Shown here in pieces: positions 42,611 through 59,074 of a stretch of DNA of 64,000 bases. Location: positions 32,001 to 96,000 of the IMG/VR virus record IMGVR_UViG_3300013105_000022; one strand, given 5' to 3'. Origin of the DNA: a virus (Duplodnaviria; Caudoviricetes). Both the position numbers and the translations under genes were made by a program. The stretch's first letter is position 1, and each line of letters begins with the position of its first letter. The notes beneath the pieces are model-generated. The model was not told the DNA's origin and did not search any database. It was given only the letters and a program-made list of their open reading frames with translations.

Positions 42611-44506
42611 ATGTCCAAATTCATGACCATGCATGAGTTCTTCAGCGAGCCTGAAGAAACTCTACAAGAGGGAAGTCTAAGCTCTATCTTTGCCGAGGAG
42701 CCGGTAGACCTTCGTACCTTTATCCGAGACCCCAAATTCCTCGGACAGACGAACGTCGAGCTATCTCCAGAACAGGCGCGTGCCATTCAGGTAATTGAGC
42801 GTGTCTACTACCCAGACCTATATCCGCGCATGGCGGAAGAGTTCGAATTCGGTGAGTACTGGGGTCAGGACATCCCTAGCGCTAACCTCATCACTCTCCA
42901 GTGGGGTAAGGGTTCTGGTAAGGACGCCATTTGCCGTTGGGCCTCGCTCCGTGTGGCATATCTACTTCTCTGCCTCAAGTCTCCGCAGTTGTACTTCGAC
43001 ATGCCTGAGACTGACTCCATTCACCTTCTGAACATTGCCGCTAACGCTCCTCAGGCTAACCGAGCGTTCTTCAAGCCTATGACCACTGCCGTCAAGCAGG
43101 GATGGTTCAAGGGCAAGGCAATCATCCGTCAGGGTGAAATCGAGTACGACAAGAACATCTTCGCCGTGTCTGGTCACTCTGACGCTGAAGGTCAAGAAGG
43201 TCTGAACATCATGCTTGGTGTTGCTGACGAGATTGACGCCTTCAAGGCCAAGGATGAGATGGTCGGAACGGGTAAGAAGCTCCGTGAGGCTTCCACATCC
43301 GCTGAGTCGATTCTAGAAATGCTGAAGACCTCCGCATCTACTCGATTCCCGAAGACCTACAAGCGCGTAGCCATTTCCTACCCTCGCTACCTTGGATCGA
43401 CTATCCAGCAGTTGACCACAGAAGGTCGTGAGTCGAACGAGAAGTACGGCGCGCGCTCTATTCACTACGTCTCCGGACCCCTAGCTACTTGGGATGTCAA
43501 CCCCCGTATCTCTGGTAAGGAAGACTTCTTCGAGGACTATGAGAAGGACCCTGTAGGTTCTGCCGCCAAGTACGAGTGCAAGCCTTCCCGAGCTATCGAC
43601 CCGTTCTTCCGCAACATGGACATCTTCAAGCTGGCCGTGGATAACGATGTCATGCCTCTCACCATCGACTACAAGCCGGTGAACTACTACTCCCCTCACT
43701 ACCACCGCAATGTGCGTGGCTGGGAGCCGATCTTCCACTTCTCTCCTGACTTCAAGCCGATCCAGGGTGCTCGCTACGCACTCCACGGTGACCTTGCTAT
43801 CAAGGGTGACCGTGCCGGTATCGCTATGAGCCACGTCGAGAAGTGGGAACACTTCGACGCCACTCTGGTGGACAATGAGGGAGCGAACTATCAGAAGGAG
43901 ATTGTTCGTCCTCTGATTCGCAATGACTTCACCATCTCGTTCGAGGCTAAGGCTGAGGCACGAGACACCAATGGTGACCCACTTCCCCGCGAAATCCAGA
44001 TTCGATGGGTACGAATGCTGGCTGAAGAACTCCAGAACCGTGGATTCCCTATCAGCCTATTCACTTTCGACAGCTTCCAGTCTGCGGACACTATTCAGAT
44101 TTTCACGTCCCAGGGCGTGGAGTCAAACAAGGTATCTACCGACCGTGATCCATCCCTATGGTCGTCCCTCAAGGACGTAGCATCTGAGGGTCGTCTACGC
44201 ATGCCATTCGATCAGCTACTTATGAATGAGCTTGAGGCACTTTCTAGAATTGACAACGGAAAGGTAGATCATCCGCCGAACGGCTCTAAGGACTTGGCGG
44301 ACGCATTCTGTTGCTCAATCGCTGGTGCCATTGTCGTAGGTGGAGAGGAATCCCCCGATGGCGCGATAGTAGATGTCGGAGGCGCATACTTCATGACGGG
44401 TCCTGCGCTTAGCCCGCTAGAGGGCATGGACGACGTATCGCAGACGTTGGGCGATCCGATGGGTATGCCACTAGGATTCCCGGATAGAGGAACATATGGC
44501 TGGTAA
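42611..44506 (+). CDS. terminase large subunit
   Basis: GKGSGKD Walker A, VADEID Walker B, nuclease HGDLA, FDSFQS, DHP.NGSKDLADA. Confidence 0.9.
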   Translation: MSKFMTMHEFFSEPEETLQEGSLSSIFAEEPVDLRTFIRDPKFLGQTNVELSPEQARAIQVIERVYYPDLYPRMAEEFEFGEYWGQDIPSANLITLQWGKGSGKDAICRWASLRVAYLLLCLKSPQLYFDMPETDSIHLLNIAANAPQANRAFFKPMTTAVKQGWFKGKAIIRQGEIEYDKNIFAVSGHSDAEGQEGLNIMLGVADEIDAFKAKDEMVGTGKKLREASTSAESILEMLKTSASTRFPKTYKRVAISYPRYLGSTIQQLTTEGRESNEKYGARSIHYVSGPLATWDVNPRISGKEDFFEDYEKDPVGSAAKYECKPSRAIDPFFRNMDIFKLAVDNDVMPLTIDYKPVNYYSPHYHRNVRGWEPIFHFSPDFKPIQGARYALHGDLAIKGDRAGIAMSHVEKWEHFDATLVDNEGANYQKEIVRPLIRNDFTISFEAKAEARDTNGDPLPREIQIRWVRMLAEELQNRGFPISLFTFDSFQSADTIQIFTSQGVESNKVSTDRDPSLWSSLKDVASEGRLRMPFDQLLMNELEALSRIDNGKVDHPPNGSKDLADAFCCSIAGAIVVGGEESPDGAIVDVGGAYFMTGPALSPLEGMDDVSQTLGDPMGMPLGFPDRGTYGW

Positions 44507-46394
44507 GGACGACGAAGACAACAAGCTTGAGGCAGGCGAGGTCGCGGCTAACAACCCGAACGCCTTCCCAAAGCCGAAGGACAGTGAGCTTGGCATCGAA
44601 CTCGGTGTGGAGCAAAACCTGCCCTTTGCTGTACCCTTCAGCGACGGCCTTGGAAAGAAGGCACGCCAGGACAAGGAGCTACGAGAGCTTCTTCGTGACG
44701 AGTCCGAAGAGCAGGGTCCTTCTGTATCCCAGCTAATCGCTATGCGCCGTCTGGATGGTCAGGCTCGTGCTCTGTATCGTCTACTCACGCTCCCTCTGCG
44801 TGCCGCTCTCTCCAAGAGCACCTTCATCCCCGCCGATGGGGGAGAAGAAGAAGCAGAGTTCATCGATCACCAGTTCAACCTCCCACCGGCATCCGGTGGT
44901 ATGACTGTGACCTTCCACAGGTTCATGGCTCAGCTTCTCCAGGCTCTGTTCGACGGGTTCTCTCCTTTCGAGATGGTCTACGACTACTCTACGTACGGTC
45001 CTATGAAGGGCAAGTACTACCTGAAGAAGATGGCCTACCGCCAGCCAAACACCATCACCGTTATCGAGGACGAGGATGGCCACTTCGCTGGCTTCCGTCA
45101 GCGCGCCTACGCTAACGGCAAGGCTTACGATGTCGTGATCCCTCGCGAGCGTGCGTTCTACTTCGCCGCTCAAGAGGAAGAGCGCAAGTACTACGGTGTG
45201 AGCTTCTTCCAGAGTGCGTTCTACCACTACGACAAGAAGATCAAGATGTACTACATCGCCCACCTGGCCGCTCAGCGTGCCGCCGTGGGTACTCGTGTGG
45301 GTAAGTTCCCGACCAACATGTCTGAGATTCAGAAGCGCCAGTTCGCTCAGAACCTCTCCAACCTGGCCGTGGCACAGTGGATGCTCGTTCCGATGGACGC
45401 TGAGGTTGAAATCCTCAAGGACAGCGGTTCCTTCGCGTTCCTGGACTACATCAACCACCACAACCACATGATGGCTCAGTCCATCCTTGCGGGCTTCTTC
45501 GACTCTGACACAGGTACAGGCGAGAGTGACAACACTCTCGTCAAGTTCGGCACGCCTGGCGACACCATGTTCTTCCTGATGCTTCAGGCCATCATGGACG
45601 ACATCGCCAACTCGATCAACCACTACATCATCCCGCCGCTCATCGACTGGAACTTCTCGGGTGGAAAGTACCCGACATTCCAGTGGTCTGAGATTACGGC
45701 TGAGCAGAAGTCTCTCATCTACGAGACCTTCAAGACGCTCGCCAACGCCGAGACTGTATCCCCTGAGTTCACCCGTGAACTAGAAATCAAGATGGCCGAT
45801 GACATGGGCCTTGAGATTGACTGGGATGAGGTCGAAGCTCGCGAGGCCATTGAGAAGGAATCCGAGAACATGGTCAACGGTCTCGACGCAGACGGTAAGC
45901 CTCTGCCGAAGGACGCTATGGGCAACCCGATCCTCCCAGGTCAGGACAACCCGGATGCCGCCCTCCAGGCTTTCGAGACTCAGGCCGCTGGCGCTGGTGC
46001 CATTCCAGAGGCTACAGATGAAGAGAAGAAGGCTGTCAAGCTCTCTGCCGACGAGAGCCTACTAGACATGGCTTCTGACCTTCTGAAGCTCGCCCGTCCT
46101 ACCTCCGGCTCGTACCGAACGGTACGTACTCAGGAGGGTGCAGAGCGCTTCGACGTATCCATTGGTCAGCAGATTCCTGCTGGCGCTGGACGAGACGAAG
46201 AGGGCGGCAAGCGCAAGGTAACTGTCGAGCGTCTGATGTCTCTCCGTTCCCAGTTCGATGAGGCTAAGCGCGCCGGTAACCAGGCCGTTGCCGACAAGGC
46301 TATGGAAGCCCTGAAGAAGGCAGTCTACGACTACACAGGTTCCTGGTCTCCTTCCATGTTCATCCAGACGATGAAGAAGCTCCCGACTAAGTAA
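44496..46394 (+). CDS. portal protein with C-terminal extension
   Basis: Follows terminase; GFSPFE, YGVS, INHHN..MAQSIL, IPPLIDWNF (DUF935/Mu gp29-like). Confidence 0.85.
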   Translation: MAGKDDEDNKLEAGEVAANNPNAFPKPKDSELGIELGVEQNLPFAVPFSDGLGKKARQDKELRELLRDESEEQGPSVSQLIAMRRLDGQARALYRLLTLPLRAALSKSTFIPADGGEEEAEFIDHQFNLPPASGGMTVTFHRFMAQLLQALFDGFSPFEMVYDYSTYGPMKGKYYLKKMAYRQPNTITVIEDEDGHFAGFRQRAYANGKAYDVVIPRERAFYFAAQEEERKYYGVSFFQSAFYHYDKKIKMYYIAHLAAQRAAVGTRVGKFPTNMSEIQKRQFAQNLSNLAVAQWMLVPMDAEVEILKDSGSFAFLDYINHHNHMMAQSILAGFFDSDTGTGESDNTLVKFGTPGDTMFFLMLQAIMDDIANSINHYIIPPLIDWNFSGGKYPTFQWSEITAEQKSLIYETFKTLANAETVSPEFTRELEIKMADDMGLEIDWDEVEAREAIEKESENMVNGLDADGKPLPKDAMGNPILPGQDNPDAALQAFETQAAGAGAIPEATDEEKKAVKLSADESLLDMASDLLKLARPTSGSYRTVRTQEGAERFDVSIGQQIPAGAGRDEEGGKRKVTVERLMSLRSQFDEAKRAGNQAVADKAMEALKKAVYDYTGSWSPSMFIQTMKKLPTK

Positions 46395-46402
46395 GGGGCG
46401 CT

Positions 46403-47188
46403 ATGACCTCCTTCAAGGAGCAGATGCGAGTACACGAGGCCTCCAGGGAAGCAACCTCTGCCCTGGAGGCTGTGTCTCGTAGCGCCATCGAGCGTATCTT
46501 CTCCGAGTGGGAGTCAGACATTCATGATGCCCGTAGCGTGCGCTGGGAGCTAGAACGAGTAATTCGTAACGCCTACCGATCCAGCGCTAACGTAGCTCGT
46601 AACGTGGCCTCTGAATCCTCTGGCCTGCCTGACTGGTCATCTGCCGAAGTCTTCAACTCTTCCTACCTCCAGTCGCTGATCCTGGACGTTCGTCGCAACC
46701 TCCGTGACTACAAGAGCGGCAACCTCTCCAGGGAAGGTGCAGTCTCTCGAATCCAGCACTCTGCCGGTGTAGCCGCACAGCGTGGATACACGGATCAGAC
46801 CATCGCTTCCTACACAGAGCTTGAGGACTTCGGCCTGGAGCTACGCAAGTACTGGGTGGCCAACTTCGTCAACAACACCCCGTGCCCTGCATGCACGCGC
46901 CTACACGGCACGGCTGTGGGATTGCATGAGATGTTCCGCACGGAGACAGGCGAGCCTGGAGTCTACCGTGACCTCATTGGTCCTCCCCGCCATCCGAACT
47001 GCAAGTGCCGCCTCTACATCTTCGTGGTCTCGCTGGAGAACGCCTTTGAGTCTCCCAACTTCGAGAAGCCTCAGGAAGCTCCTCAGATGATGAGCACTGA
47101 CGACGTGAAGAAGATGCCGCTGTCTATCTTTGGAGCCGTCAGAGCGAGCCTGAGCGCCATTCTGAGCTTCCTACGAAAGGGACGCTGA
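46403..47188 (+). CDS. MuF-like minor head protein
   Basis: K.W...CPACTRLHG...PPRHPNCKC. Confidence 0.8.
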   Translation: MTSFKEQMRVHEASREATSALEAVSRSAIERIFSEWESDIHDARSVRWELERVIRNAYRSSANVARNVASESSGLPDWSSAEVFNSSYLQSLILDVRRNLRDYKSGNLSREGAVSRIQHSAGVAAQRGYTDQTIASYTELEDFGLELRKYWVANFVNNTPCPACTRLHGTAVGLHEMFRTETGEPGVYRDLIGPPRHPNCKCRLYIFVVSLENAFESPNFEKPQEAPQMMSTDDVKKMPLSIFGAVRASLSAILSFLRKGR

Positions 47189-47409
47189 TGCACTTCCAAT
47201 CCTCCCGTATCATGTTCGACTCCCTGGACGCCGCAGTGGAGGGACTACTGGTTGTGCTCGAAGACGCACGCGAGACAGTCTTCAAGTACAGCTTCGGTTC
47301 CCTATCCGCAGAACAGGTCTACGCCTCTGGTCTCATGCTCATCGGAGAGATTGAGGAAGTCACCCACAAGCTGGAGCAGATCGCGGGCACTACCCGGTAC
47401 GACGACTGA
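47188..47409 (+). CDS. hypothetical protein
   Basis: Coupled ORF. Confidence 0.55.
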   Translation: MHFQSSRIMFDSLDAAVEGLLVVLEDARETVFKYSFGSLSAEQVYASGLMLIGEIEEVTHKLEQIAGTTRYDD

Positions 47410-47507: not shown

Positions 47508-50500
47508 GTGAGCACCGAACTAGAACTTGAGTTCATCGAACTAGCCGTAGGTAAGGGCCGTCGAGTCCAGACCGCTGAAGGTGCTAGGTTCTACGGTCAG
47601 CCTATTGGCACGCTCATCACGCCGGACATGATTAAGAAGGCGCGCTCTGCCGCCAAGGCAAAGGGCATCACCCCGCCCAAGGGTGGCCTCTCTCCGAAGA
47701 AGGCACCCCAGGTATCTGTAGGTGCTGGCAAGGCGTCTCCCGCTGGCAACTTCAATGCTGATCCATCCGCTGGAGCACCTGTAGGCGCTGACACTTCCGG
47801 CAAATTCCAGGTGAAGCCCTCCTCTATCAAGGGTCCTCAAGGATTCAAGGTCGGCGCTACTCAGTACTCCGCTCCTTCCGGCTCTAAGCTCATTCGTCCG
47901 AAGAATCAGGAAGAGTTCGCGTACGTCGTAACTCCGGATGGTTCTGTTCACGCCTTCACCGCCGCCGGTGAGCTAGACGTACCCGACTACCTAGAGCCTG
48001 TCCTTACGAAGAAGTTCAAGGACCTCAAGGGTGATGACACCCTCTACAAGGTAGACACCTTCGATGCCCCGTCCTCCTTGGCTGAGCAGAAGCCAGGCTC
48101 TACGCTGTCCAAGAACGGCAAGCCTCTGTTCAAGAAGCAGGCCAACGGCGTGTGGATGAACGAGGACATCGGTGCTGAGCTTACTGACGATGACCTACAG
48201 CGCCTCTACGATGGTGGTAGCTTCGATCTGGAGCCTGCCAACACTGTCGAGGACATCGACTTCTCAAAGCTGACTACTGACGAGCTTCAGGCCGCTCTTG
48301 AGGCTATGCCTGACGGCAAGCAGATGAAGTTCTCCAAGACTGTCGTAACCAAGAAGAACGGCAAGTGGAACTCCTCCGCCACAGGAAAGAACACTTCCTC
48401 TGAGGACCTGGCATACATGTCAGCAGGTACCGGCTCTATCACAGACAAGCTCGACAACCCTGAGGTAGCCCCAGAGCCTGGTAAGGCTGACAAGGCCGCT
48501 AAGGAGAAGGAAGCTTCTGACCCGCTTCGTAATCCAGAAAATGAGCTAAATGAGACAAATGCTCAGAAGAAGAAGGCGACAGAAGCCAAGGCTACGGGCG
48601 CGGAAATTCTAAAGTCCGAAGTCGGAGCAGTGGTATACCATGACGTTGCCGGTGCCCTCACCAAGCAGGACAATTCCACCTGGGAGAACACTGACGGAGC
48701 CTCCTTCGCAGAAGTAAATATTGTTGACTCTGCCAACATGGGTTACATCTCTAATGAGCCTTGGACTCCAGAGCAGAAGGATGCTAAGGAGAAGTTCGAC
48801 GCCGAGAACACCCTGACGGTTGGGGGCAAGGAGCTATCCACCGTAGGTAAGTTCGGTGAGAACGACCGCTCCGAGGCCATCAAGGCAGATGGCGGATCGA
48901 CACCGAACGTCTTCGAGCTAGAAGCTACTCCAGAGAACGTTAAGACGTTCCGTGACGCCATGCAGAAGTCGCTTGAGGGAAACCCTTACTCTGCATCCGT
49001 GTACGTCTACGACGAGTCCGACTACGCGGGTATGCGCCTCTTCCTGTCCGACGATGGAAAGAGCGGTATCGCCCTGCACGACGGAGACGAGATTGTCTCC
49101 GTCTTCAGCGACCCCAAGAGCAAGAACAAGAAGGTAGCTCGCCACCTAATCTCCGTAGCTGTGGAGAACGGTGGAAAGCGCCTAGACGCCTTCGACACAG
49201 TGCTACCGGGAATCTACGCTAAGGAGGGCTTCATTGTCAAGTCTCGCCTGAAGTGGGATGACGACTTCGCCCCGGAGAACTGGAACAAGGAAACCTTCAA
49301 GAAGTTCAACAACGGCGAGCCGGATGTTGTCTTCATGCAGTACGAGAAGGGCATGGAAGACCTCGACTACGAGCCGGGTTCCGGAGACTACGTAGATGAC
49401 TACGACAAGGGCCTAGCATCCACCGGCGGTAAGGCACAGGACGAGAACGACTATCGTCCTGAGATTGGCGACCCTGATAACGAAGAGAACAGCGTAGAGA
49501 CCACCAAGAGCGGCTACGTTGTCAACGATGAGGTCAAGTCTTCCCTAGCTGAGGGTAAGAAGATCAACGCCATCCTCAACCTGAAGAACTCCAACAAGGG
49601 GATGTCTCTGGCTGAGGCCAAGAAGGAAATCGACGCGATGGTTCTCGAAGGGTACCAGCCCGGAGACACCGTAAGTGGAAACATGCTCTGGGAGCTTCCA
49701 GAGGGTGCCAAGATCAAGACCGCTTCAGGTGGAGAGTTCACCAAGAACGAGAATGGCAACTGGGTCACCAAGAACGGTGGTGTCTTCTCTTCGAGCGATA
49801 TGTACGATGACGGTATGGATGCTGAGATTGTAAGCAACCCTGCCGCCAAGCAGAAGAAGATCGAAGCACCGAAGGTTGAAGAGCCTGAGGTTGATCCTGA
49901 TGAGGAGTTCCACAGCCTTCTCGAAGCGAATGAAGTCACAGTCGAGAAGCTGATTGACCTCAAGGCCGGAGACATCATCTCCAACGGTGAGTTTGAGTTC
50001 ACCAAGGATGAGAACGACAAGTTCGTCAACGACCAGTTCCTATACGAGTTCGACGCTGACGACTTCTCCCAGGACATCGACAATGGCAAGATTTCCATTG
50101 TCGAGCAGACCGGCTCTGACGATGAAGAAGCCGTAGATGCAGACACCGCAACTGTAGACGACCTCAAGGCTATGAAGCCGGGTGACTCCGTGAACATCGC
50201 GGATTTCAAGTACGTCATGAATGATGATGGGAAGCTGGTTTCGGACACGAGCGGGTGGCTGTTTGACCCGCAGGAATTCGAGCAGGACCTAAAGACGTGG
50301 GGTTCTAAGAAGAGTGACATCACTCCGTCTCAGACTGTCGAAAAGTACGGCGAGAACGGCAACGAGTTCCTTCCAGAGGCTCAGGCTAAGCAGGCCATCG
50401 AGTCCCTGGAAGCACACTCTGGTTTCCAGATCAAGTACGGACTGAAGTCTCTGCCTGAGGATCACCCGCTCAAGAACCAGGAGTACCTTGACGGGTACCT

Positions 50501-53500
50501 CGCTGACGCCAAGCAGAACTTCTCCGACCTTTCCCCTAAGGCCGCTCTGCTCGCTCAACTGAAGCTGGATGCCAAGGTAGAGAAGCTGGACGAATGGGAG
50601 AAGGAGCTTCTTGCAGAGGGAAGCACTGACAAGATTCAGATCGGCTCTCGTACCCCGAAGACAAACGCTACCGGTGTAACCGGAGGACAGTTCAACAAGG
50701 GCGACGTTCAGAGTGCCATCGACATCCTGGAGAACTACAACGGCAAGCTGTTCAAGAGCGAACTGAACAAGAAGGGCAACCCTCTCGGTAAGCTGTCCCC
50801 GAACGACATCGTAGGCTTCGATAAGGACAAGACCCTTACCAAGCAGAAGTTCATTGATCTTCTGAAGAAGAAGGTTGCTCCGAAGGAAGCTCCTGTAGAA
50901 GAGGCTATGAACAAGCAGTTCGACATCTCTCAGGAGCCTGAAGAGGGTAAGGTTGTCGCCGCTGATCCGGACATGAGCGCTCTCAAGAATGCCCCGGTGG
51001 GTACCATTGTGAGCAGGCCCACTCCTCCTTACATGGGTACGCCTAACGGTCTTCAGAAGTACCAGAAGAACGAGGACGGCACTTGGTCTAACATTGAGGG
51101 AACTACTCCACCAAAGCAGTCTGATAGCGTCTTCTTCTACAACACAGCCATGAGTGGTGGGCTGAAGTGGAGCGCTCCGGATGTTCCAGAGAGGGAAGAC
51201 AACGGCCAGTACGCTGACGGTGACCTGATCCAGTCATTCGAGAACTTCAAGAATCTGCCGGTCGGTTCTGAAGTTAGCTTCCAGTCTAAGTACGGTGGAG
51301 ACCCCTCTACCTATGTAAAGACGCGCCCCGACACCTGGGTAGTATCCGATGACCCAGACCTCAAGCTGAAGGATCAGAACTTCAAGAACTCCGTCGAGGG
51401 TGGATCACTCAGCTACAAGAAGACAGAGCCTACCGCTCCTGATGCCGACGACTCCCTGGATGCTACGCTCGACGCGCACTTCCAGATCATGGCCGAGCTT
51501 GACAAGGCTGTTTCCGTTCTGCCCGCTGAAGAGCGCGGCGAGAACGGTGATGGCTATGTCATCGTGCACACGGAGAAGGGTCCAAAGATCACGTGGGGTA
51601 AGTTCGGTGGTGGAGGTATCGCTACCGTAGCCACGGACGAGAACGGTGTGAAGAAGGTCCTCATCGGTAAGCGTGGAGACCGCGATGAGTGGTACCTGCC
51701 GGGTGGAGCTATCGATGAGAACGAGAGCCACCTTCAGGGTTCGCTCCGTGAGTTCACCGAAGAAGTAGAAGATGGTGACGCCATTCTGGACAGCATCCAG
51801 ATCACGCAGGCGTACCAGGCTGTCATCGGAAAGATCGAAGGAACGGACAAGGACTGGAAGTACGTCACGTCTGTTGCTACACTGCCTTCCATGATCGATG
51901 TCAAAGCACCGGATAGCATCGAGGATTGGGAACTCAAGGAGTACCAGTGGTTTAGTGCTGAAGAGCTTAATGTGCTCGATGCTGAGGGTAAGCTTCACCC
52001 TGCCCTGGGAGGAGGAAACCTTGCCAAGATGGTAGGTTTCTACGACACGGAAGTTGACGACCTCCACGCAGACATCCTCTCCCTCATGAACGAGCCGGAC
52101 AACCTCAACGAGGATCGATACGACATCTCCAACTGGAAGAAGGTCGATGGAGGTCAGGGCGGATCGAACCCTGGCGGCGTGTACGAAGACCCTCTGGGCA
52201 ACAAGTACTACGTCAAGGAGTCCAACGGCGGCGAAGCACCGATGCATAACGAGGTCATCGGTGGCGCACTCTACAAGGCCGCTGGTGTCAACAGCAACGA
52301 AGTCTTCTTCGTTACTAAGGGCGATCAGCGTCTTCTGGCGACCCCGTGGATCGAGAACAACGGGCAGAAGATGCTTGACGTTCTCGACGGCAACGAAAAT
52401 GAGTTCAGGAAGAAGGCCCAGGCTGACTTCGCTATCGATGCCTGGCTGGACAACTACGATGTCGTCGGTATCGGCCCGTGGAACCTTGTGGCTGACGAGA
52501 ACGGTGATCCTCTACGACTTGATCCAGGCGGCTCGATGATGTTCCGTGCTACTGGAGCAGAAAAGTCGTGGTGGAGCGACGAGCCTACCGCTATCGATGA
52601 CATGCGCTTCGGTTCCAGCAACTCCAGTGCCTACACTTACCTCCCGAATGTCTTCGGTGATATGACGGGCGATCAAGTGAAGGAATCTGCGAAGAAGCTC
52701 CTCGCGGTGACCCCCGAGAAGATCAGCACTATCGTCAACTCTTCCGGGCTTGACGAGGATACTAAGGCCAAGCTGTACTCGACTCTGGTGATCCGCCGTG
52801 AGAAGATTCTGGACCGCTTCGGTCTGACTCCTGAGGGAACGACGATTGACGTGCCCGAAGCCGTTTCTGGTACCCCTGCATTCACTAAGGGTACGACAGT
52901 CAAGCTGAAGGGTACCGGTCAGCAGTTCCAGGTTGAGCTTTCTAACAATGAGGCTACAGCCGGTCTCGTAGACGGCAAGTTCCTGGTCTTCCTGAACGAC
53001 GAGCTTACGGGCGATCTGGAAGCTAACTTTAGTGCTCAGCACGCCTTCACATCGAACGGTGAGAACTTCAAGCAGGCTGAGGCCGTTGAGGTCATCGACC
53101 CGAAGAACCCCGGACAGAAGATTCCAGGATTCGTCATGAAGGCCGACTGGTCAAGTGGTCTCGTACAGGTCATGACAGGCGCTGAGGGTGGAGAAACAAC
53201 CAGCATCGAGGTAGACAAGTCTCACATCACGAAGATGCCTCAGCAGGCTCCACAGCGCGTCGAGCTTCCAGAGGGCTACGCTAAGGTACCTGAGGGCCAG
53301 AAGGCATTCGGCAAGTACCCGAACCTGGGTTACTACGTCACCGTGGACGAGAGCGACGAGACTCACGTCTATGGAATCGATGGCAGTTCTTGGGCAGGAG
53401 GACCTAAGGCCGCTTACGAGCAGGCATTCAAGAACCCTGAAAGCTCCTGGGAAGCTTGGAGCGGAGATGGTTCCGCTCCAGAGCCGCAGGCTACCCCAGA

Positions 53501-55376
53501 GGTCGAGACTCCTGCCGATGGCCCGAAGGACAGCGCGGGTCAGGTGGTCGCTATGGGCGACAACGTGACTATCGTCAAGTACAACAAGGGCGGACTCTCC
53601 AACAAGGCCACCATCGTCTCGATCAACTCCGAGAAGGGAACCGCAAAGGTTCGCCGTCTGGATGAGAACGGTGTGCCTATGGTGGGCGAGAACGGCAAGC
53701 CTCTGTACGCTACGATGTCGCTGTCCAGCCTCCGCAAGGACAACCAGACCGTGAACGAGAGTGGTCTGCCTACAGGCATCACCATGTCTGGTGGAGACAA
53801 GAACAGCCCTCTGTATGGACAGCCTGAGCCTGTCGCACCGGCGGCTACTCCACAGACCGAATCTGATGCCCCAATCGTCTCTGACGAGTGGATCAGCAAG
53901 GCCACAGAGGCTTACAAGGCCTACCGCTCCAAGAAGGGCCTCCCTGAGAAGGACCTGAAGCTGTCTACCACGGCTTGGGGTCCTATCGAGAGAGCCATGA
54001 AGGGTGACGAGTCTGCGCTGACCGCTATCAAGACCAAGGGTTACCTGGACGAAGACCCGGCCCTGTATGAAGAAATTCAGCAGGCCATCGACGCACAGAA
54101 GCTCAAGTACGCTGACATCATCGCTCAGCACGAGCAGGCTGTAACCGAATACCAGAAGCAGAAGTCCGAATGGATGACTGCCAATGGTGTTGCCTCCTAC
54201 ACGCCGATCAAGCACGAGCAGACTCTTCAGATGAACGAGAACGAGTCCAAGGACTGGGCACTCAAGAAGTACACCAACATCTTGAGCAAGCTGACCTCGA
54301 AGGCTAAGCAGGGTCTCCAGAGTCAGAAGGTCTCGTCGGACTGGCAGACGGTCATTCGCAAGCTTCCAGCCATCCTGGGTCTTCGTCGTGAGGACGTAGC
54401 TAGCGCGCCTGGAGTGCATGAAGCGAACATGCAGACGTGGGACAACATCAAGGAAGCCACAGACCAAGCAGGGCCTGTAGGAGAGGCCTTCCGCGCCGTA
54501 CGTACCATCTCATTCGACCGACTGGTTGGCCCGGACGGTAACCCTCTGACCTCTGATAGTGACCTGACCAAGATCATCGGTTCCATTCAGAAGGATCACG
54601 GAGCTATGGAGATTGTTCCAGGTTCCGTCGATCACGGTGGTAAGATCGCTGACTTCTACCCTGTCATCATGGACCTCGCGGTTCCTGCCGACGCCAAGGG
54701 AATGTACACGGGCTTCGAAGAGTTCTCTTACAACGAAGAGCACGGAATCATCATGGAGCCTGGACTGGCCATGTACATCTGGGGTGCCGAGCAGAAGAAG
54801 ATTCCTCAGTTGGGTGGACTTACGAAGTGGGTCGTCAAGGCCTCTATCATCCCGCGCGATGTTCTGCCGTACATGAACAACTTCCAGGGTGATCCGATGA
54901 GTCACAACATCCTGATCCCTGGTAAGGACACCACGACCGGTATCACTTCATCTCCGTTCTCGGAAGAGAACTGGGGAAAGAGCACTCTCGCGGAGATTAA
55001 GAAGGCCAAGATCGATGACGCCGTTGTGGACTTCGATGGCAAGCAGTGGAAGAAGATCAACGACATCTCAACGGGAACGAAGATTTGGTGGCAGAACGGT
55101 ACAGGTAAGAAGGCCTCTGACCAGTTCCTCTTCGACAACTTCATGGGCGAGAAGCCCGCTCCGGAAGTCTTCGAGACCGTACAGCCTAAGGGATACAGGT
55201 GGACTGAATCCAAGCTGGACAATCTGAGCATCGGAGATAACGTCGTAGACAGTGACGGAGATATCTGGCAAAAGATTTCTGGCGGTGAATGGAAGCTGAT
55301 CCAGAAGAATGGCCCTAGCAACTACCTCGAAGTGGGCGAAGTTCGCTCCAGCTATGCCGTCGCATCCTACATGTAA
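47508..55376 (+). CDS. giant multi-domain (polyvalent) putative internal virion protein: GNAT-like, L7/L12-like, Nudix, PI-kinase/HipA-like, VIP2-like ART, repeats
   Basis: 2622 aa inside head operon; exact Nudix box GAIDENESHLQGSLREFTEE; YVK..NEV..DAWLDNYD..N..DPG kinase-like motifs; LDAFDTVLPGIY GNAT-like segment. Confidence 0.75.
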   Translation: MSTELELEFIELAVGKGRRVQTAEGARFYGQPIGTLITPDMIKKARSAAKAKGITPPKGGLSPKKAPQVSVGAGKASPAGNFNADPSAGAPVGADTSGKFQVKPSSIKGPQGFKVGATQYSAPSGSKLIRPKNQEEFAYVVTPDGSVHAFTAAGELDVPDYLEPVLTKKFKDLKGDDTLYKVDTFDAPSSLAEQKPGSTLSKNGKPLFKKQANGVWMNEDIGAELTDDDLQRLYDGGSFDLEPANTVEDIDFSKLTTDELQAALEAMPDGKQMKFSKTVVTKKNGKWNSSATGKNTSSEDLAYMSAGTGSITDKLDNPEVAPEPGKADKAAKEKEASDPLRNPENELNETNAQKKKATEAKATGAEILKSEVGAVVYHDVAGALTKQDNSTWENTDGASFAEVNIVDSANMGYISNEPWTPEQKDAKEKFDAENTLTVGGKELSTVGKFGENDRSEAIKADGGSTPNVFELEATPENVKTFRDAMQKSLEGNPYSASVYVYDESDYAGMRLFLSDDGKSGIALHDGDEIVSVFSDPKSKNKKVARHLISVAVENGGKRLDAFDTVLPGIYAKEGFIVKSRLKWDDDFAPENWNKETFKKFNNGEPDVVFMQYEKGMEDLDYEPGSGDYVDDYDKGLASTGGKAQDENDYRPEIGDPDNEENSVETTKSGYVVNDEVKSSLAEGKKINAILNLKNSNKGMSLAEAKKEIDAMVLEGYQPGDTVSGNMLWELPEGAKIKTASGGEFTKNENGNWVTKNGGVFSSSDMYDDGMDAEIVSNPAAKQKKIEAPKVEEPEVDPDEEFHSLLEANEVTVEKLIDLKAGDIISNGEFEFTKDENDKFVNDQFLYEFDADDFSQDIDNGKISIVEQTGSDDEEAVDADTATVDDLKAMKPGDSVNIADFKYVMNDDGKLVSDTSGWLFDPQEFEQDLKTWGSKKSDITPSQTVEKYGENGNEFLPEAQAKQAIESLEAHSGFQIKYGLKSLPEDHPLKNQEYLDGYLADAKQNFSDLSPKAALLAQLKLDAKVEKLDEWEKELLAEGSTDKIQIGSRTPKTNATGVTGGQFNKGDVQSAIDILENYNGKLFKSELNKKGNPLGKLSPNDIVGFDKDKTLTKQKFIDLLKKKVAPKEAPVEEAMNKQFDISQEPEEGKVVAADPDMSALKNAPVGTIVSRPTPPYMGTPNGLQKYQKNEDGTWSNIEGTTPPKQSDSVFFYNTAMSGGLKWSAPDVPEREDNGQYADGDLIQSFENFKNLPVGSEVSFQSKYGGDPSTYVKTRPDTWVVSDDPDLKLKDQNFKNSVEGGSLSYKKTEPTAPDADDSLDATLDAHFQIMAELDKAVSVLPAEERGENGDGYVIVHTEKGPKITWGKFGGGGIATVATDENGVKKVLIGKRGDRDEWYLPGGAIDENESHLQGSLREFTEEVEDGDAILDSIQITQAYQAVIGKIEGTDKDWKYVTSVATLPSMIDVKAPDSIEDWELKEYQWFSAEELNVLDAEGKLHPALGGGNLAKMVGFYDTEVDDLHADILSLMNEPDNLNEDRYDISNWKKVDGGQGGSNPGGVYEDPLGNKYYVKESNGGEAPMHNEVIGGALYKAAGVNSNEVFFVTKGDQRLLATPWIENNGQKMLDVLDGNENEFRKKAQADFAIDAWLDNYDVVGIGPWNLVADENGDPLRLDPGGSMMFRATGAEKSWWSDEPTAIDDMRFGSSNSSAYTYLPNVFGDMTGDQVKESAKKLLAVTPEKISTIVNSSGLDEDTKAKLYSTLVIRREKILDRFGLTPEGTTIDVPEAVSGTPAFTKGTTVKLKGTGQQFQVELSNNEATAGLVDGKFLVFLNDELTGDLEANFSAQHAFTSNGENFKQAEAVEVIDPKNPGQKIPGFVMKADWSSGLVQVMTGAEGGETTSIEVDKSHITKMPQQAPQRVELPEGYAKVPEGQKAFGKYPNLGYYVTVDESDETHVYGIDGSSWAGGPKAAYEQAFKNPESSWEAWSGDGSAPEPQATPEVETPADGPKDSAGQVVAMGDNVTIVKYNKGGLSNKATIVSINSEKGTAKVRRLDENGVPMVGENGKPLYATMSLSSLRKDNQTVNESGLPTGITMSGGDKNSPLYGQPEPVAPAATPQTESDAPIVSDEWISKATEAYKAYRSKKGLPEKDLKLSTTAWGPIERAMKGDESALTAIKTKGYLDEDPALYEEIQQAIDAQKLKYADIIAQHEQAVTEYQKQKSEWMTANGVASYTPIKHEQTLQMNENESKDWALKKYTNILSKLTSKAKQGLQSQKVSSDWQTVIRKLPAILGLRREDVASAPGVHEANMQTWDNIKEATDQAGPVGEAFRAVRTISFDRLVGPDGNPLTSDSDLTKIIGSIQKDHGAMEIVPGSVDHGGKIADFYPVIMDLAVPADAKGMYTGFEEFSYNEEHGIIMEPGLAMYIWGAEQKKIPQLGGLTKWVVKASIIPRDVLPYMNNFQGDPMSHNILIPGKDTTTGITSSPFSEENWGKSTLAEIKKAKIDDAVVDFDGKQWKKINDISTGTKIWWQNGTGKKASDQFLFDNFMGEKPAPEVFETVQPKGYRWTESKLDNLSIGDNVVDSDGDIWQKISGGEWKLIQKNGPSNYLEVGEVRSSYAVASYM

Positions 55377-55387
55377 GGAACTAGAAA

Positions 55388-55816
55388 ATGGCAAATGAAA
55401 TCCTAGTCATCAGCCCTGAACTGAAGAAGCTGATCGATTCTGTTCCTGTAGAACTTCTACGCAGGGGGCCAGAGCGTTACGACTCTCTGCGCCCCTCTGC
55501 GCGAGGCTCCTGGAAGACTGTCCTATACGACGGCCTACCCATCGCTGTGGCGTGGACGGACTGGAAGGAAGGCTTCGGGATTATCAACCTGAAGACCGAA
55601 GAACCCACAGACCGTCTAGAGAATTACGTCATCACAGCTAAAGCGCTTGACATCCCCGCCGGTTGGGCGTATACTTCACTTGAGACAGTTGTATCTAAGT
55701 ACGAGTTTGACCGAGAGGTAACCCTATCCGGTCAGACGGACGGCAAGCTGAGCAAGCTCACACAGGACGAGGAGACAGAAGTCGATACGGAAGAGGATGA
55801 CGATGACACTGAATAA
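55388..55816 (+). CDS. hypothetical protein
   Basis: RBS, follows giant gene. Confidence 0.65.
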   Translation: MANEILVISPELKKLIDSVPVELLRRGPERYDSLRPSARGSWKTVLYDGLPIAVAWTDWKEGFGIINLKTEEPTDRLENYVITAKALDIPAGWAYTSLETVVSKYEFDREVTLSGQTDGKLSKLTQDEETEVDTEEDDDDTE

Positions 55817-56129
55817 GAAGCTTGAGGGCGACATCACACAGGTTGAGGGGTACTACCTCGCCGTAGCTCGTGGTGCCGATTCGGGTGAGTTCATCGGCTT
55901 CTATGGCTTCACTCCTGACGGAACCTACATCCGCAACGCGGGTAACTGGATCACCGCCACAGGCCCTGCCCTGAACAAGCTCAACGGTGCTCAATTGGTC
56001 GAGATGAAGAACACATTCATCCTCCGCTTTGACGCATTGGACAAGAAGGGACTCCTCCCTCCCGGAGATGATGTCCTGGAAGAGAAGAGCACAAAGGGCA
56101 ATCCAGGCTCCTGGGATTCACAGAACTGA
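55797..56129 (+). CDS. hypothetical protein
   Basis: Overlapping coupled ORF. Confidence 0.6.
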   Translation: MTMTLNKKLEGDITQVEGYYLAVARGADSGEFIGFYGFTPDGTYIRNAGNWITATGPALNKLNGAQLVEMKNTFILRFDALDKKGLLPPGDDVLEEKSTKGNPGSWDSQN

Positions 56130-56175
56130 AATAAAGGATCGTCGTTCATACCGACATAGTGCGATAGTACTAGGT

Positions 56176-57288
56176 ATGGACGACGATCTTGTTTATGTAC
56201 CCGACGAAGGCAACTCCTTCGTTGAGCTTTCGCGCACCCCTTCGGGTAAGCTGTACCGCAAGCACATCCTTACCAAGGGTCCTCTTTACTACCCTGGCGT
56301 AAAGGGCGGAAAGATTGACGTAGACGACAAGTTCCTTGATACGGTTGTCAAGAACTTCAACGATCACGTCGTATCTCACGTACAGGCACCGGTGGTCGAT
56401 GGAAACAATTCCCACACCGAAGACCCGTTCCGTAACATTGGTGAAGTTATCAAGGTTGAGCGTGAGGGTGATAAGCTATACTCGTACATTGACGTACGTG
56501 ACGAAAAGGCTGTCCCTCTTGTAGGTAAGACTCTTCTTGGTGCTTCTGCTATGTTCTCCCTCGACTGGAAGAACAACAAGACCAACATGCGTGTTGGACC
56601 GGCCCTGATTCACACGGCCATTACCAACAACGCTCATGTCAACGACCTCGAAGATTTTGAGGAAGTGCGACTCTCCAATGGAGTGAGCGATAGTAATACA
56701 CGACAGAAGGCAGTGGTACTTTCCGCTAGCCCAGACGACAACACTAAGGATGGTTCCGCAATGGACCTAGACGAACTGATTGCAGTCCTTAAGGACGAGC
56801 ACGGTATCGACGTTCCTGAGCTTCAGAAGGCGGCTGGCAAGGCTGACAAGTTCGCCAAGCTTTCTGCTGAGCTTCAGGAGAAGCTTGCTACGGGCGAGGA
56901 TGCAGTCCTCAAGCTGAGCAACACCGATGACGAGGCTTCTGCCGAGGACATCGTTGCCGCAGTTGCTGACCTCGTACAGTCCCGCGTAGAGCTTTCCTCC
57001 AAGGTCGATGGCCTTGTCAAGGATGCCGCTACCGCTAAGGCTGAGGCTCGCATCGAAGAGCTTGTTGCCGGTGGCTTCATCGCCCCTGCCAAGCGCGCCG
57101 AGAACCTGGAGCTTCTGCTCTCCAACGCCGAGCTATTCGAGCGTATGGTTCCTGAGAAGCCGCTCGTCAAGCTCTCTGCTGAGGACGGCCAGGAGCACAA
57201 GGATGACTCGCACGACGAGACTGTCGCAAGTGAGGTCGCCCGTCTTTCCGCCGATGCCAAGGCCAACGGCCTTCTCATCGAGGCCTAA
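56176..57288 (+). CDS. capsid maturation protease / scaffold fusion
   Basis: Leaderless ATG 56176; H, SAMF, GPALIHTAITN (Mu gpI-like); coiled-coil C-half. Confidence 0.8.
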   Translation: MDDDLVYVPDEGNSFVELSRTPSGKLYRKHILTKGPLYYPGVKGGKIDVDDKFLDTVVKNFNDHVVSHVQAPVVDGNNSHTEDPFRNIGEVIKVEREGDKLYSYIDVRDEKAVPLVGKTLLGASAMFSLDWKNNKTNMRVGPALIHTAITNNAHVNDLEDFEEVRLSNGVSDSNTRQKAVVLSASPDDNTKDGSAMDLDELIAVLKDEHGIDVPELQKAAGKADKFAKLSAELQEKLATGEDAVLKLSNTDDEASAEDIVAAVADLVQSRVELSSKVDGLVKDAATAKAEARIEELVAGGFIAPAKRAENLELLLSNAELFERMVPEKPLVKLSAEDGQEHKDDSHDETVASEVARLSADAKANGLLIEA

Positions 57289-57318: not shown

Positions 57319-57729
57319 ATGGTAGAATACGCAGGTAACGCGATTCCAGCCGCTGGCATTACGCGCGGTCAGAACGTACCCGACGACGAGATTCTGTACT
57401 CGACTGTCGGATTCACACAGAAGGGTGTCACTCTAGCCGCTGGCCAGGGTACGCTCCTTGCAGGTACCGCCCTTGCACGTAAGACTTCCACGAAGGAATA
57501 CGTCAAGTTCGCTTCCGGTGGTGGAGATGGTACGGGCACTCCGCTCGGTATCCTCCGCAAGACGGTTGCAACCGGTTCCGACGCAAACGGTCAGAAGTAC
57601 ATGGGTAACATCGTTATCGCTGGTATCCTCAAGCTTCAGAAGGTTTCTTCGGCTAACGGCGGTGTCTCGAACATCACGACTCCTCTTGGAGCAGTCGCTA
57701 ACGACGTACTCCAGACGTTCAAGTTTTAA
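57319..57729 (+). CDS. head decoration protein
   Basis: VTLAAGQGTLLAGTAL...GIL; position before capsid gene. Confidence 0.7.
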   Translation: MVEYAGNAIPAAGITRGQNVPDDEILYSTVGFTQKGVTLAAGQGTLLAGTALARKTSTKEYVKFASGGGDGTGTPLGILRKTVATGSDANGQKYMGNIVIAGILKLQKVSSANGGVSNITTPLGAVANDVLQTFKF

Positions 57730-58005: not shown

Positions 58006-59034
58006 GTGCCTGATATTTCACTCTTCCAGCCAACGGTGCTGATGGGTGTCGTTGAGAAGTTCACGGCACCTGAGAATCTTACAATGCTCAACCGCATTGA
58101 CAAGACTCCGCACCCGTTCCCGACTGCACAGTGGGACGTTATCCGTGGTTCGCGCGCTATTGCTCGCCCGAACGTTCCGAACTCTGAAGCCCACATCGTA
58201 CCTCGCCTCGGTCGCGAGCAGATGGCCGCTAGCTTCATCTACCTTCGTGAGAAGAAGGTATTCGAGCCGACGACTCTGTACTGGCTACGTACCCCTGGTG
58301 AAATCGCCAAGGTAAACGCCGAGCGTGCAGTTCTCCGTGAAATCACGGACCTGAACCGTCGTTTCGACAACTTCGCTGAGTACGCCATTTGGCAGATGTT
58401 CACGGGTCAGTTCAACCTTCCCGAGGACGGCGATGCTCCTGCTATCAACGTTGACTACAAGCTCCCAGCTTCGCACAAGGTCAACGCCGGTACTTCTTGG
58501 GCAACCGCTACTCCGAAGCAGATCATCGCTGATGTTCGCGCTTGGAAGCGTCTCGTCAACCGTGACGGTCAGGTAGTTGCTAACGAGGCTTACGCTTCCG
58601 AGAACTCCATCACCGCCATCTTCGACTCCTTCGCTTCGGCTGGTACCACTCCCGCGTACCTCCTGTCCGACCGCATGAAGGACCAGTACTACCGTGAGGG
58701 TCTGCTTCCAGGCTTCCTCGGTATCAACTGGAAGATTCAGGATGCCGTCTTCGACGCCACGGGTGCCTCGTACACCGAGAACCCGACCGATCCTGGTGCA
58801 GAGAAGCCGTTCCTGGCCGACAACCGCATCATCTTCGGTAACTTCACCGAGGGTCGTCCGTTCGAGATGATCGTTGGACCGACCGCTGACCTTGAGGCTC
58901 CTCAGGGCTACACGGGCAAGTTCGCCAAGACCTGGCAGGACAAGGACCCGTCCGGTCGTCAGTACCTCCTAGAGTGGAACTTCCTGCCGGTTCTGAACCG
59001 TCCTGAGCAGTTCGTTTACGCCAACGTCGCGTAA
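58006..59034 (+). CDS. major capsid protein (lambda E-like)
   Basis: AGGAG RBS, strongest codon bias, EYAIWQMFTG, VDY, DPSG...LPV, downstream terminator. Confidence 0.85.
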   Translation: MPDISLFQPTVLMGVVEKFTAPENLTMLNRIDKTPHPFPTAQWDVIRGSRAIARPNVPNSEAHIVPRLGREQMAASFIYLREKKVFEPTTLYWLRTPGEIAKVNAERAVLREITDLNRRFDNFAEYAIWQMFTGQFNLPEDGDAPAINVDYKLPASHKVNAGTSWATATPKQIIADVRAWKRLVNRDGQVVANEAYASENSITAIFDSFASAGTTPAYLLSDRMKDQYYREGLLPGFLGINWKIQDAVFDATGASYTENPTDPGAEKPFLADNRIIFGNFTEGRPFEMIVGPTADLEAPQGYTGKFAKTWQDKDPSGRQYLLEWNFLPVLNRPEQFVYANVA

Positions 59035-59047
59035 GCTCTAACAGGCT

Positions 59048-59074
59048 AGCCCCCATCTTCGGGTGGGGGCTTTT
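59048..59074 (+). terminator. intrinsic terminator after capsid gene
   Basis: AGCCCCCATC-TTCG-GGTGGGGGCT-TTT. Confidence 0.85.

Follow-up and report, generated by a model that had tools for sequence, protein, structure and literature searches.

A 2622-residue polyvalent multi-enzyme protein in the head module of a metagenome-derived caudovirus

A giant gene in a phage head module is described here from a 64,000-nucleotide stretch of DNA (hereafter the window), which covers bases 32001-96000 of the 136,515-base viral record IMGVR_UViG_3300013105_000022 (Duplodnaviria; Caudoviricetes), rated complete. The gene (47508..55376; features written as start..end lie on the plus strand) encodes a polyvalent multi-enzyme head-module protein of 2622 amino acids (aa), called P0001 below, which carries, from its N- to its C-terminus, a GNAT-fold acetyltransferase-like domain, a Nudix hydrolase domain, an atypical protein-kinase-like domain and an ADP-ribosyltransferase (ART)-like domain. 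All four folds of this multi-enzyme architecture, which an earlier model-made reading of the window (the original prediction) had proposed, pass independent tests. The surrounding module is of Mu type and has the order portal, MuF, a 73-aa open reading frame (ORF), the giant gene, two small ORFs, protease/scaffold, decoration protein and major capsid protein (MCP).

The giant ORF starts with GTG, has AGGAG 7 nucleotides (nt) upstream and runs as a single unbroken frame of 7869 nt. P0002, a 2603-aa protein on another contig, is 80% identical to P0001 and colinear with it over the whole length, and identity to P0003, P0004 and P0005 is 48-58% across most of it; because such homologues exist on other contigs, the ORF is a genuine single gene. 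Aspartate and glutamate make up 16.6% of its residues against 10.9% for lysine and arginine, and there are no cysteines. Stretches with a net charge of -10 or lower (aa 211-266, 616-666, 785-890 and 1389-1433) show that the acidic linkers of the original prediction are real. No internal repeat was found in P0001 at E<=1 by self-BLAST. A candidate ~50-aa repeat (L..hP.G..h...G..F.K...G.W, approximately nine copies) is not claimed: a hidden Markov model (HMM) built from all copies finds them, which is circular, and one built from three copies misses the others and scores no better than shuffles. The coding-strand AT skew is raised along the giant gene (0.14-0.21). A 438-aa antisense ORF (53151-54467, minus strand) lies fully within it; it most likely arises from composition and is not a gene.

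The kinase-like domain (aa 1535-1795; 52110..52892) has a bilobal kinase fold and belongs to the CtkA/CotH/PI4K-II/HipA structural group. Its AlphaFold2 (AF2) model has a pLDDT of 91.8, and a VIA structure search with it gives H. pylori CtkA at Z 15.3 over 214 aligned residues (Foldseek 4.8e-7, TM 0.58-0.61), CotH at Z 13.3, PI4K-IIalpha at Z 12.8, MavQ at Z 12.6 and HipA at Z 11.7, followed in the ranking by Fam20, actin-fragmin kinase and then ordinary protein kinases at Z 8-10. With these best matches, the original call of a 'PI3/4-kinase/HipA-like' domain was right at the level of the fold. Key residues are the ATP-binding K1570, E1582 of helix C, the catalytic D1644-x4-N1649, D1651 and R1670-x-D1672-x-G with its metal-binding D-x-G (in domain numbering K36, E48, D110, N115, D117 and R136-x-D138-x-G140), which fall in or near the motifs GGSNPGG (nt 52158-52178), YVK (~nt 52209), NEV (~nt 52248), DAWLDNYD (nt 52437-52460) and RLDPGG (nt 52515-52532). 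Across a 49-sequence alignment of the family, G-S-N-x-G-G, the Lys of Y-V-K, the Glu of N-E, D-A-W-L-x-N-x-D and R-x-D-x-G are invariant. Because all ATP-binding and phosphotransfer residues are conserved, the modelled kinase is probably active, and it is most likely a protein Ser/Thr kinase. A lipid (phosphatidylinositol) kinase role is conceivable since actinobacteria have phosphatidylinositol, but it is not favoured because Pseudomonas, Vibrio, E. coli and members of many other phyla have phages and prophages in which the family is common.

Neither PF00454 (PI3_PI4_kinase) nor PF07804 (HipA_C) matches P0001 at E<=1, and weak HipA_C or HipA_2 matches (E>=0.02) occur in only 3 of 49 kinase-family members. 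A PDB sequence and profile search with the domain gave nothing significant (LepB at E 0.12-0.19). A PF00454 match in the relative P0011 was dropped as support for the kinase because its region does not align to P0001. A single-sequence search for loci related to the kinase domain found nothing, and an alignment was required. The HMMER search with aa 1535-1795 reaches 3817 cluster representatives at E<=1e-3, of which 2109 pass E<=1e-10; nearly all of the best 150 listed are proteins of ~800-7000 aa, and a few are stand-alone proteins of 229-370 aa. Up to five copies of the domain occur in one protein (P0059), with two or three copies in ~20 proteins of the sample. Genomes from many bacterial phyla contain the domain as well, where prophages presumably carry it. 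Among the BFVD matches of the kinase model are proteins with the names portal, head morphogenesis and ADP-ribosyltransferase. An 'ADP-ribosyltransferase' of 1213 aa in Pseudomonas phage Jeremy (L002:2099-5740) combines the same kinase-like domain, at ~aa 634-877, with a canonical PF03496 domain at aa 1110-1187; its gene lies away from any obvious head module and adjoins nucleotide phosphatase and restriction endonuclease genes.

The Nudix domain (aa 1346-1500; 51543..52007) is matched by Pfam NUDIX (PF00293) at aa 1374-1490 with E 1.9e-8 (34.9 bits against a cut-off of 21.1) and by a PHROG 'MutT/NUDIX' family at 8.2e-14. The intact Nudix box of the original prediction, there placed at 51704-51764, is present as G-x5-E-x7-REFTEE at aa 1400-1419 (nt 51705-51764); at its end R-E-F-T-E-E is kept and the final G-U reads E-D (R-E-F-T-E-E-V-E-D).

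The GNAT-like stretch had been predicted at about 48930-49350, and this interval falls inside a domain of 191 aa (aa 455-645; 48870..49442). For its alignment 32 short homologues were gathered, of which 27 were aligned with the query, and aa 455-645 were folded; the family keeps the stretches L-D-A-F-D-T, I-Y..G-F and G-E-P-D-V-V-F invariant. The resulting AF2 model (pLDDT 94.2) has top Foldseek matches that are all GNAT acetyltransferases (2fiw at 2.9e-5; RimI 5isv), and in the VIA search the best 50 listed are likewise all GNATs (Z 9.2-11.2, 112-136 aligned residues). The predicted structure thus confirms a GNAT fold for aa 455-645, and both this domain and the kinase modelled as the original prediction had claimed. 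No Pfam GNAT match was found for P0001, and none was precomputed for the 32 short homologues; a PDB sequence profile search with the domain gave nothing significant, only designed TIM-barrel noise. The loop that binds the acyl-CoA pyrophosphate in GNATs, Q/R-x-x-G-x-G/A after strand 4, is atypical in P0001, where it reads K-S-K-N-K-K-V-A, and most family members have a glycine in this loop. On its modelled fold, the GNAT domain is likely to be active.

Toward the C-terminus lies an ART-like domain of VIP2/Alt type (aa 2104-2470; 53817..54917), whose N-terminal part is helical and whose core spans aa 2231-2470. P0001 aa 2104-2452 align to the C-terminal half of gp4 of Arthrobacter phage DrManhattan (BLAST 5e-18), of which aa 497-662 are PF03496. 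No direct Pfam match of P0001 to PF03496 was found. Profile comparison by HHalign links the P0001 clade to canonical ARTs at 97.1% with 7 against 4 sequences, and at 98.8% (E 6.2e-17, 186 columns) with 12 against 40. A DarT-like identity is not adopted, since the profile comparison favours the Alt/VIP2 clade. The catalytic arginine is retained as R2332, with A-V-R-T opposite T-R-G in the alignment, and 10 of 12 clade members have it. The [FY]-x-S-T-S strand corresponds to A-M-E-I-V, so that STS reads E-I-V, within a K-D-H-G-A-M-E-I-V stretch of which K-D-H-G-A-M-E is conserved with one or two substitutions over the 12-member clade. The E-x-E motif reads E-H-G in P0001 (clade consensus E-[HNRM]-G), with the second glutamate aligned to glycine in the HMM and HH alignments; the BLAST alignment, shifted by two residues, places the single glutamate at the catalytic position, and the register is uncertain. 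Both substitutions occur in all 12 sampled members of the clade, and S-T-S and E-x-E are kept in ~45 other ART domains of kinase-bearing polyvalent proteins. The VIP2-type ART-like domain that had been predicted at about 54240-54860 is therefore homologous to PF03496 ARTs, with the STS serine and the second glutamate lost. Canonical ART catalysis is doubtful because STS reads E-I-V and ExE reads E-H-G. From these residues we lean against the domain still transferring ADP-ribose, while allowing that it may; otherwise it would be a binding module or have an altered chemistry.

The remaining regions of the protein have no assigned family. Between the kinase and the ART-like domain is a beta-rich region (aa 1796-2100; 52893..53807) with no match in Pfam, PHROGs or ESM Atlas; for the SH3/KOW-like units of the original prediction the sole signal is DUF2187 at E 0.21. 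No family is assignable to the C-terminal tail (aa 2471-2622; 54918..55373), which has weak similarity to segments of P0011. An N-terminal module (aa 1-190; 47508..48077) consists of two conserved blocks split by a low-complexity linker and always forms the N-terminus of related giant ORFs. The central conserved module (aa 940-1135, 'EAHSGFQIKYGLKS...'; 50325..50912) is common to ~14 related giants and matched no known family.

Within the N-terminal module is a 22-aa tag motif, R-R-V-Q-T-A-E-G-A-R-F-Y-G-Q-P-I-G-T-L-I-T (aa 18-38; 47559..47621), preceded by I-E-L-A. Its consensus is R-[RK]-V-[RQ]-T-P-E-G-A-x-[FY]-[FY]-G-x-P-I-G-x-x-I-[TV], with h-x-L-A just upstream; the 25-sequence tag alignment was too variable for a scan of the collection, and a subset was used. 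The tag stands at the N-terminus of every related giant protein, and the same genomes also carry it on a second head-module protein. Depending on the genome, this second protein has 108-137 aa and is encoded immediately behind the portal (Magritte gp14, E 4e-11), is a protein of 1044 aa (the P0013 phage, E 1e-18) or, in one contig, is a MuF-containing ORF. One head module encodes two tag proteins, of 1044 aa (L091:2087-5221) and 2522 aa (L091:7001-14569), and in another phage the tag is on a MuF-containing ORF and on the next ORF (L104:2956-4263 and L104:4492-6069).

A second copy of the tag in the window, R-T-V-R-T-Q-E-G-A-E-R-F-D-V-S-I-G-Q-Q-I (46116..46175; E 2.1e-5), is preceded by L-K-L-A and lies in a C-terminal extension of the portal protein. 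The portal ORF is ~50-100 aa longer than in relatives, and its last ~92 aa (within 45996-46394) are 40% identical to Magritte gp14 (L088:6543-6869; E 2e-14), which points to a gp14-like protein fused to the portal in this phage; by sequence, the portal C-terminus looks like a fusion of the portal gene and a gp14-like gene. A motif found both on a portal-attached protein and on the N-termini of otherwise unrelated large proteins is what would be expected of a loading or docking signal, and the tag is thus a candidate head-loading or portal-docking signal.

The head genes around the giant gene are readily recognized, as the original prediction of a head operon had proposed. They begin with a Mu-type portal of 632 aa (44496..46394; Portal_Mu 5.8e-35), followed by a 261-aa MuF-like head protein (46403..47188) that matches Pfam Phage_Mu_F at E 4.8e-6, below the curated cut-off, and has several PHROG head-morphogenesis matches. 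A conserved 73-aa ORF (47189..47408), with counterparts in Magritte and on the contigs of P0013 and P0014, separates MuF from the giant gene, and two small ORFs (55388-55816 and 55797-56129) follow it. The giant ORF does lie between MuF and the predicted protease, although three further small ORFs share an interval that had been read as holding one. The protease itself is a protease/scaffold candidate (56029..57288), whose true start is probably later than the listed TTG; the Mu-like_Pro match behind the name is at 8.6e-4, below threshold, and the Magritte counterpart is annotated as a scaffolding protein. A lambda-D-type head decoration protein (HDPD; 57319..57729) and an E-type MCP (58006..59034; Phage_cap_E 1.7e-29), 62% identical to the Magritte MCP, complete the module.

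Just after the MCP gene is a terminator-like hairpin with a 10-bp stem and a T-run (59048..59071), the sole strong plus-strand hairpin of this kind in 42-60 kb. Counts of terminator-like sites in that interval are not above chance, so the hairpin is no more than consistent with one late operon. Upstream of the portal, in the position of the terminase, is a 631-aa ORF (42611-44506) whose counterpart in Magritte bears the annotation terminase. The ORF gave no match to Pfam or PHROG families in the window scans, and the product of a relative carries PF27249 MJ0330_N. A search of the window for tRNA and tmRNA genes yielded none.

Among cultured phages, Microbacterium phage Magritte (133 kb) is the closest, with 62% identity in the MCP and 55% in the portal, and for this reason the host is probably an actinobacterium. 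A megablast search of the head region against cultured phages found nothing. The order of the slot is conserved in four related phages of ~125-137 kb, namely Magritte and those of the P0005, P0013 and P0014 contigs, in which portal, a MuF-like protein of 264-266 aa, a 73-75-aa ORF, a giant of 1991-2697 aa, small ORFs, scaffold/protease, decoration protein and MCP follow one another. The payload differs among these syntenic giants; only the N-terminal module and, more weakly, the central module are held in common. Comparison of domain content across related phages, a check proposed with the original prediction, thus reveals a shared chassis with a differing payload.

All four enzyme families of P0001 occur elsewhere fused to MuF, VG15 or portal domains. 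Microbacterium phage Barnstormer gp4 joins VG15 to the GNAT family of P0001, Arthrobacter phage DrManhattan gp4 joins VG15 to a VIP2-like ART, and the metagenomic protein P0055, encoded directly after a portal gene, consists of MuF, Nudix, a P0001-type kinase and DUF3626. Among 162 sampled kinase-bearing proteins, a VIP2-type ART is present in 54 and a Nudix domain in 51, the Nudix figure being an underestimate; these counts, both uncorrected for relatedness, suggest that the kinase, ART and Nudix activities work together.

We consider it probable that P0001 is a capsid-packed, ejected multi-effector head protein. This reading is strengthened because its domain families are fused to head domains elsewhere, its slot is syntenic with a varying payload and its tag is shared with a portal-attached protein. 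We infer the packaging, ejection, cleavage, substrates, timing and anti-defence or takeover roles that make up the following account. P0001 would be made late alongside the head proteins, as a chassis (the N-terminal module with its tag, the central module and the acidic, Cys-free linkers) that carries an exchangeable enzyme payload. In the procapsid the tag could dock the protein, by its N-terminus, at the portal or close to it, possibly together with MuF, and trimming may follow after the h-x-L-A site that precedes it. The protein would be ejected unfolded through the tail, with the DNA or just ahead of it, and the absence of cysteines and the long acidic linkers would suit such unfolded ejection. 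In the host it would refold or be cut into enzymes, where the GNAT acyltransferase would probably act on protein or small-molecule amines of the host, the kinase may phosphorylate host targets, the Nudix pyrophosphohydrolase could cleave ADP-ribose, NAD-derived or other nucleotide compounds, and the ART-like domain, its active site rewired, may be inactive or carry out a different chemistry.

A more specific proposal is possible and is offered only tentatively. The tag could be a transferable capsid-loading or portal-docking signal, similar in function to the capsid-targeting sequence (CTS) of T4, by which the gp14-like portal appendage, the giant effectors and in some cases MuF are selected to be built in at the portal and to leave first, and the trio of Nudix, atypical kinase and ART or ART-like domains could at the same time form one cooperating NAD/ADP-ribose-directed takeover or anti-defence unit, not a set of independent enzymes.

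Several observations weigh against P0001 being packed and injected cargo. At 287 kDa and a net charge of -148, P0001 would sit oddly beside packed DNA. Activity of the GNAT and kinase domains is deduced solely from their folds and conserved residues, and neither has a match among curated Pfam families; the ART-like domain, without the canonical serine and the catalytic glutamate, may be dead. The function proposed for the tag is drawn from its distribution alone. P0001 has no LPD or MuF Pfam domain at E<=1, and MuF is a separate upstream ORF, so the fused layout of MuF polymorphic toxins is not present here.

Some of the same evidence would also suit a protein that is packaged and mainly structural. 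Its enzymes would then be secondary passengers, and as an internal head, ejectosome or conduit protein it would organise the DNA or lengthen the tail channel so that it spans the envelope. The chassis is conserved and the enzymes vary, Magritte gp17 keeps the slot with none of P0001's enzyme domains, the linkers are very long, Cys-free and of low complexity, and the authors of a study of phage phi24B propose a conduit role for its packaged gp47 (bioRxiv 10.64898/2026.04.10.717836). We nevertheless regard a mainly structural role as unlikely: the Nudix-box and kinase catalytic residues are strictly conserved, which argues for selected enzyme activity, and Magritte has a tape measure protein and long-tail genes, so that an extra conduit is not obviously needed. 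Structural and enzymatic roles are, moreover, not exclusive.

Less likely again is that P0001 stays out of the capsid and serves as a late cytoplasmic multi-enzyme that remodels the producing cell, for example its nucleotide or NAD pools or its protein modification, its place in the head operon being for timing only. A cytoplasmic enzyme would fit with MuF being a separate gene and with the cost that the size and acidity of P0001 would impose on packaging. It fits poorly with the covalent joining of the same domain families to MuF, VG15 and portal in other phages, with an N-terminal tag common to a portal-fused protein, with a strict slot between MuF and scaffold that is kept across head genes of ~45-62% identity, and with the finding of a related class member in virions (bioRxiv 10.64898/2026.04.10.717836). 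An assembly or annotation artefact, in which several genes are read as one ORF, could be suspected from the unusual length and the metagenome-derived record and is highly improbable given the uninterrupted 7869-nt frame, the colinear P0002 (80%) and the relatives P0003, P0004 and P0005 from independent samples and contigs, and the hundreds of proteins of 1000-7000 aa that carry the same kinase domain.

If P0001 is indeed injected cargo, its interest lies in timing: injected phage proteins act before phage gene expression and are therefore prime candidates for counter-defence and host takeover. To our knowledge, almost no giant polyvalent protein has been studied at the bench, and the cultured relative gives a handle through Magritte gp17, in the same slot, together with gp14. 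The shared N-terminal tag could explain how cargo is loaded and could be used to bring foreign proteins into capsids. The kinase-fold family is very large and has no Pfam model, and the VIP2-related clade with its consistently rewired active site is worth following. The polyvalent class is already known, so the analysis is of value for its details, namely the tag, the rewired ART clade and the size of a kinase family without a Pfam model, and not for a new principle; relative to the original prediction, what is new is the head-domain fusions found for each enzyme family, the conserved slot with changing payload and the shared tag.

Among known kinases, that of P0001 shares the P-loop-like G-S-N-x-G-G, Lys, Glu, D-x4-N and D-x-G with the CtkA/HipA/PI4K-IIalpha/MavQ/CotH group. 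Alignments with CtkA, HipA/HipT, PI4K-IIalpha, MavQ/LepB and CotH cover 195-237 residues at an identity of only 11-15%, Legionella LepB giving weak sequence and feature leads, and the P0001 kinase is embedded in a giant phage protein, whereas CtkA/HipA-type kinases stand alone. The best solved sequence relative of the Nudix domain is mycobacterial RenU (PDB 6uuf; E 7.2e-4), and the likeness takes in the N-terminal G-D-G-x-V ... W-G strand region. The preferred substrates of RenU are ADP-ribose, FAD and NADH (PMC4401782). These substrates are a lead suggested by sequence, not a substrate assignment, for the P0001 domain: the similarity is weak, the last G-U of the box is lost in P0001 and specificity is not transferable.

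Several head-internal proteins of phage T4 have in common a short N-terminal address, the CTS, which is removed by the prohead protease. The P0001 tag has no sequence similarity to it, and cleavage of the tag is putative. T4 Alt is a head-packed, injected ART that modifies host proteins (PMC5512222, PMC9503650); compared with it, the ART-like domain of P0001 lacks the R-S-E serine and the second glutamate. A closer parallel in size is gp47 of phi24B, a 2811-aa polyvalent protein. Proteomics found it abundant in virions, the cryo-EM density does not show it, and its packaging and ejection have been proposed (bioRxiv 10.64898/2026.04.10.717836). Its domains differ (LPD5, LPD1, LPD38 and a MuF-C metallopeptidase), and phi24B is a podovirus-type Stx phage of E. 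coli.

The VG15- and MuF-fused effectors of DrManhattan, Barnstormer and P0055 draw on the same domain families and are encoded between portal and scaffold/capsid genes. In these proteins the effector is joined to a head anchor, usually with one to three effectors per chain, whereas P0001 has MuF as a separate gene and four effector-type domains in one chain; the DrManhattan ART also keeps the canonical R / S-T-A / E-R-E residues. Magritte gp17 (OR553905, 1991 aa, 'hypothetical protein') occupies the same slot as P0001, and the two have in common the tagged N-terminal module (E 5e-9) and, at a weak level, the central module. None of the four enzyme-type domains of P0001 (GNAT, Nudix, kinase and ART-like) is present in gp17, which has a weak match to a different GNAT (PF00583 1.2e-3). 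Magritte gp14 is a separate gene, and its counterpart is fused to the portal in the phage described here.

Polyvalent proteins as a class carry several unrelated enzyme domains per giant chain, are linked to MuF or portal genes and include GNAT, kinase, ART and Nudix types (Iyer et al. 2017, PMC5512222), and they are predicted to be packed in the head and injected (PMC5512222, PMC9503650). P0001 had been assigned to this class by the original prediction, and the assignment is borne out by GNAT, Nudix, kinase and ART-like folds in one 2622-aa chain and by a gene that, in a viral record, is linked to MuF and to scaffold, decoration and MCP genes in conserved synteny. One relative, P0030, is named 'Large polyvalent protein...' by UniRef, and relatives that share the GNAT domain of P0001 carry LPD38 or ART-PolyVal; LPD domains or a fused MuF or portal occur commonly in the class but are not strictly required. 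The kinase described for the class is a Ser/Thr/Tyr-type domain without a C-lobe, HipA, PI3K or CotH-like kinases are not mentioned in the same account, and ARTs of the Alt/VIP2 clade had not then been found in genuine polyvalent proteins (PMC5512222). P0001 differs from the proteins of that account in its Alt/VIP2-clade ART-like domain and its HipA/CtkA-like kinase, and its N-terminal tag and chassis are not described there. P0001 is thus a polyvalent protein of a sub-family with an N-terminal tag, a central module and a separate MuF.

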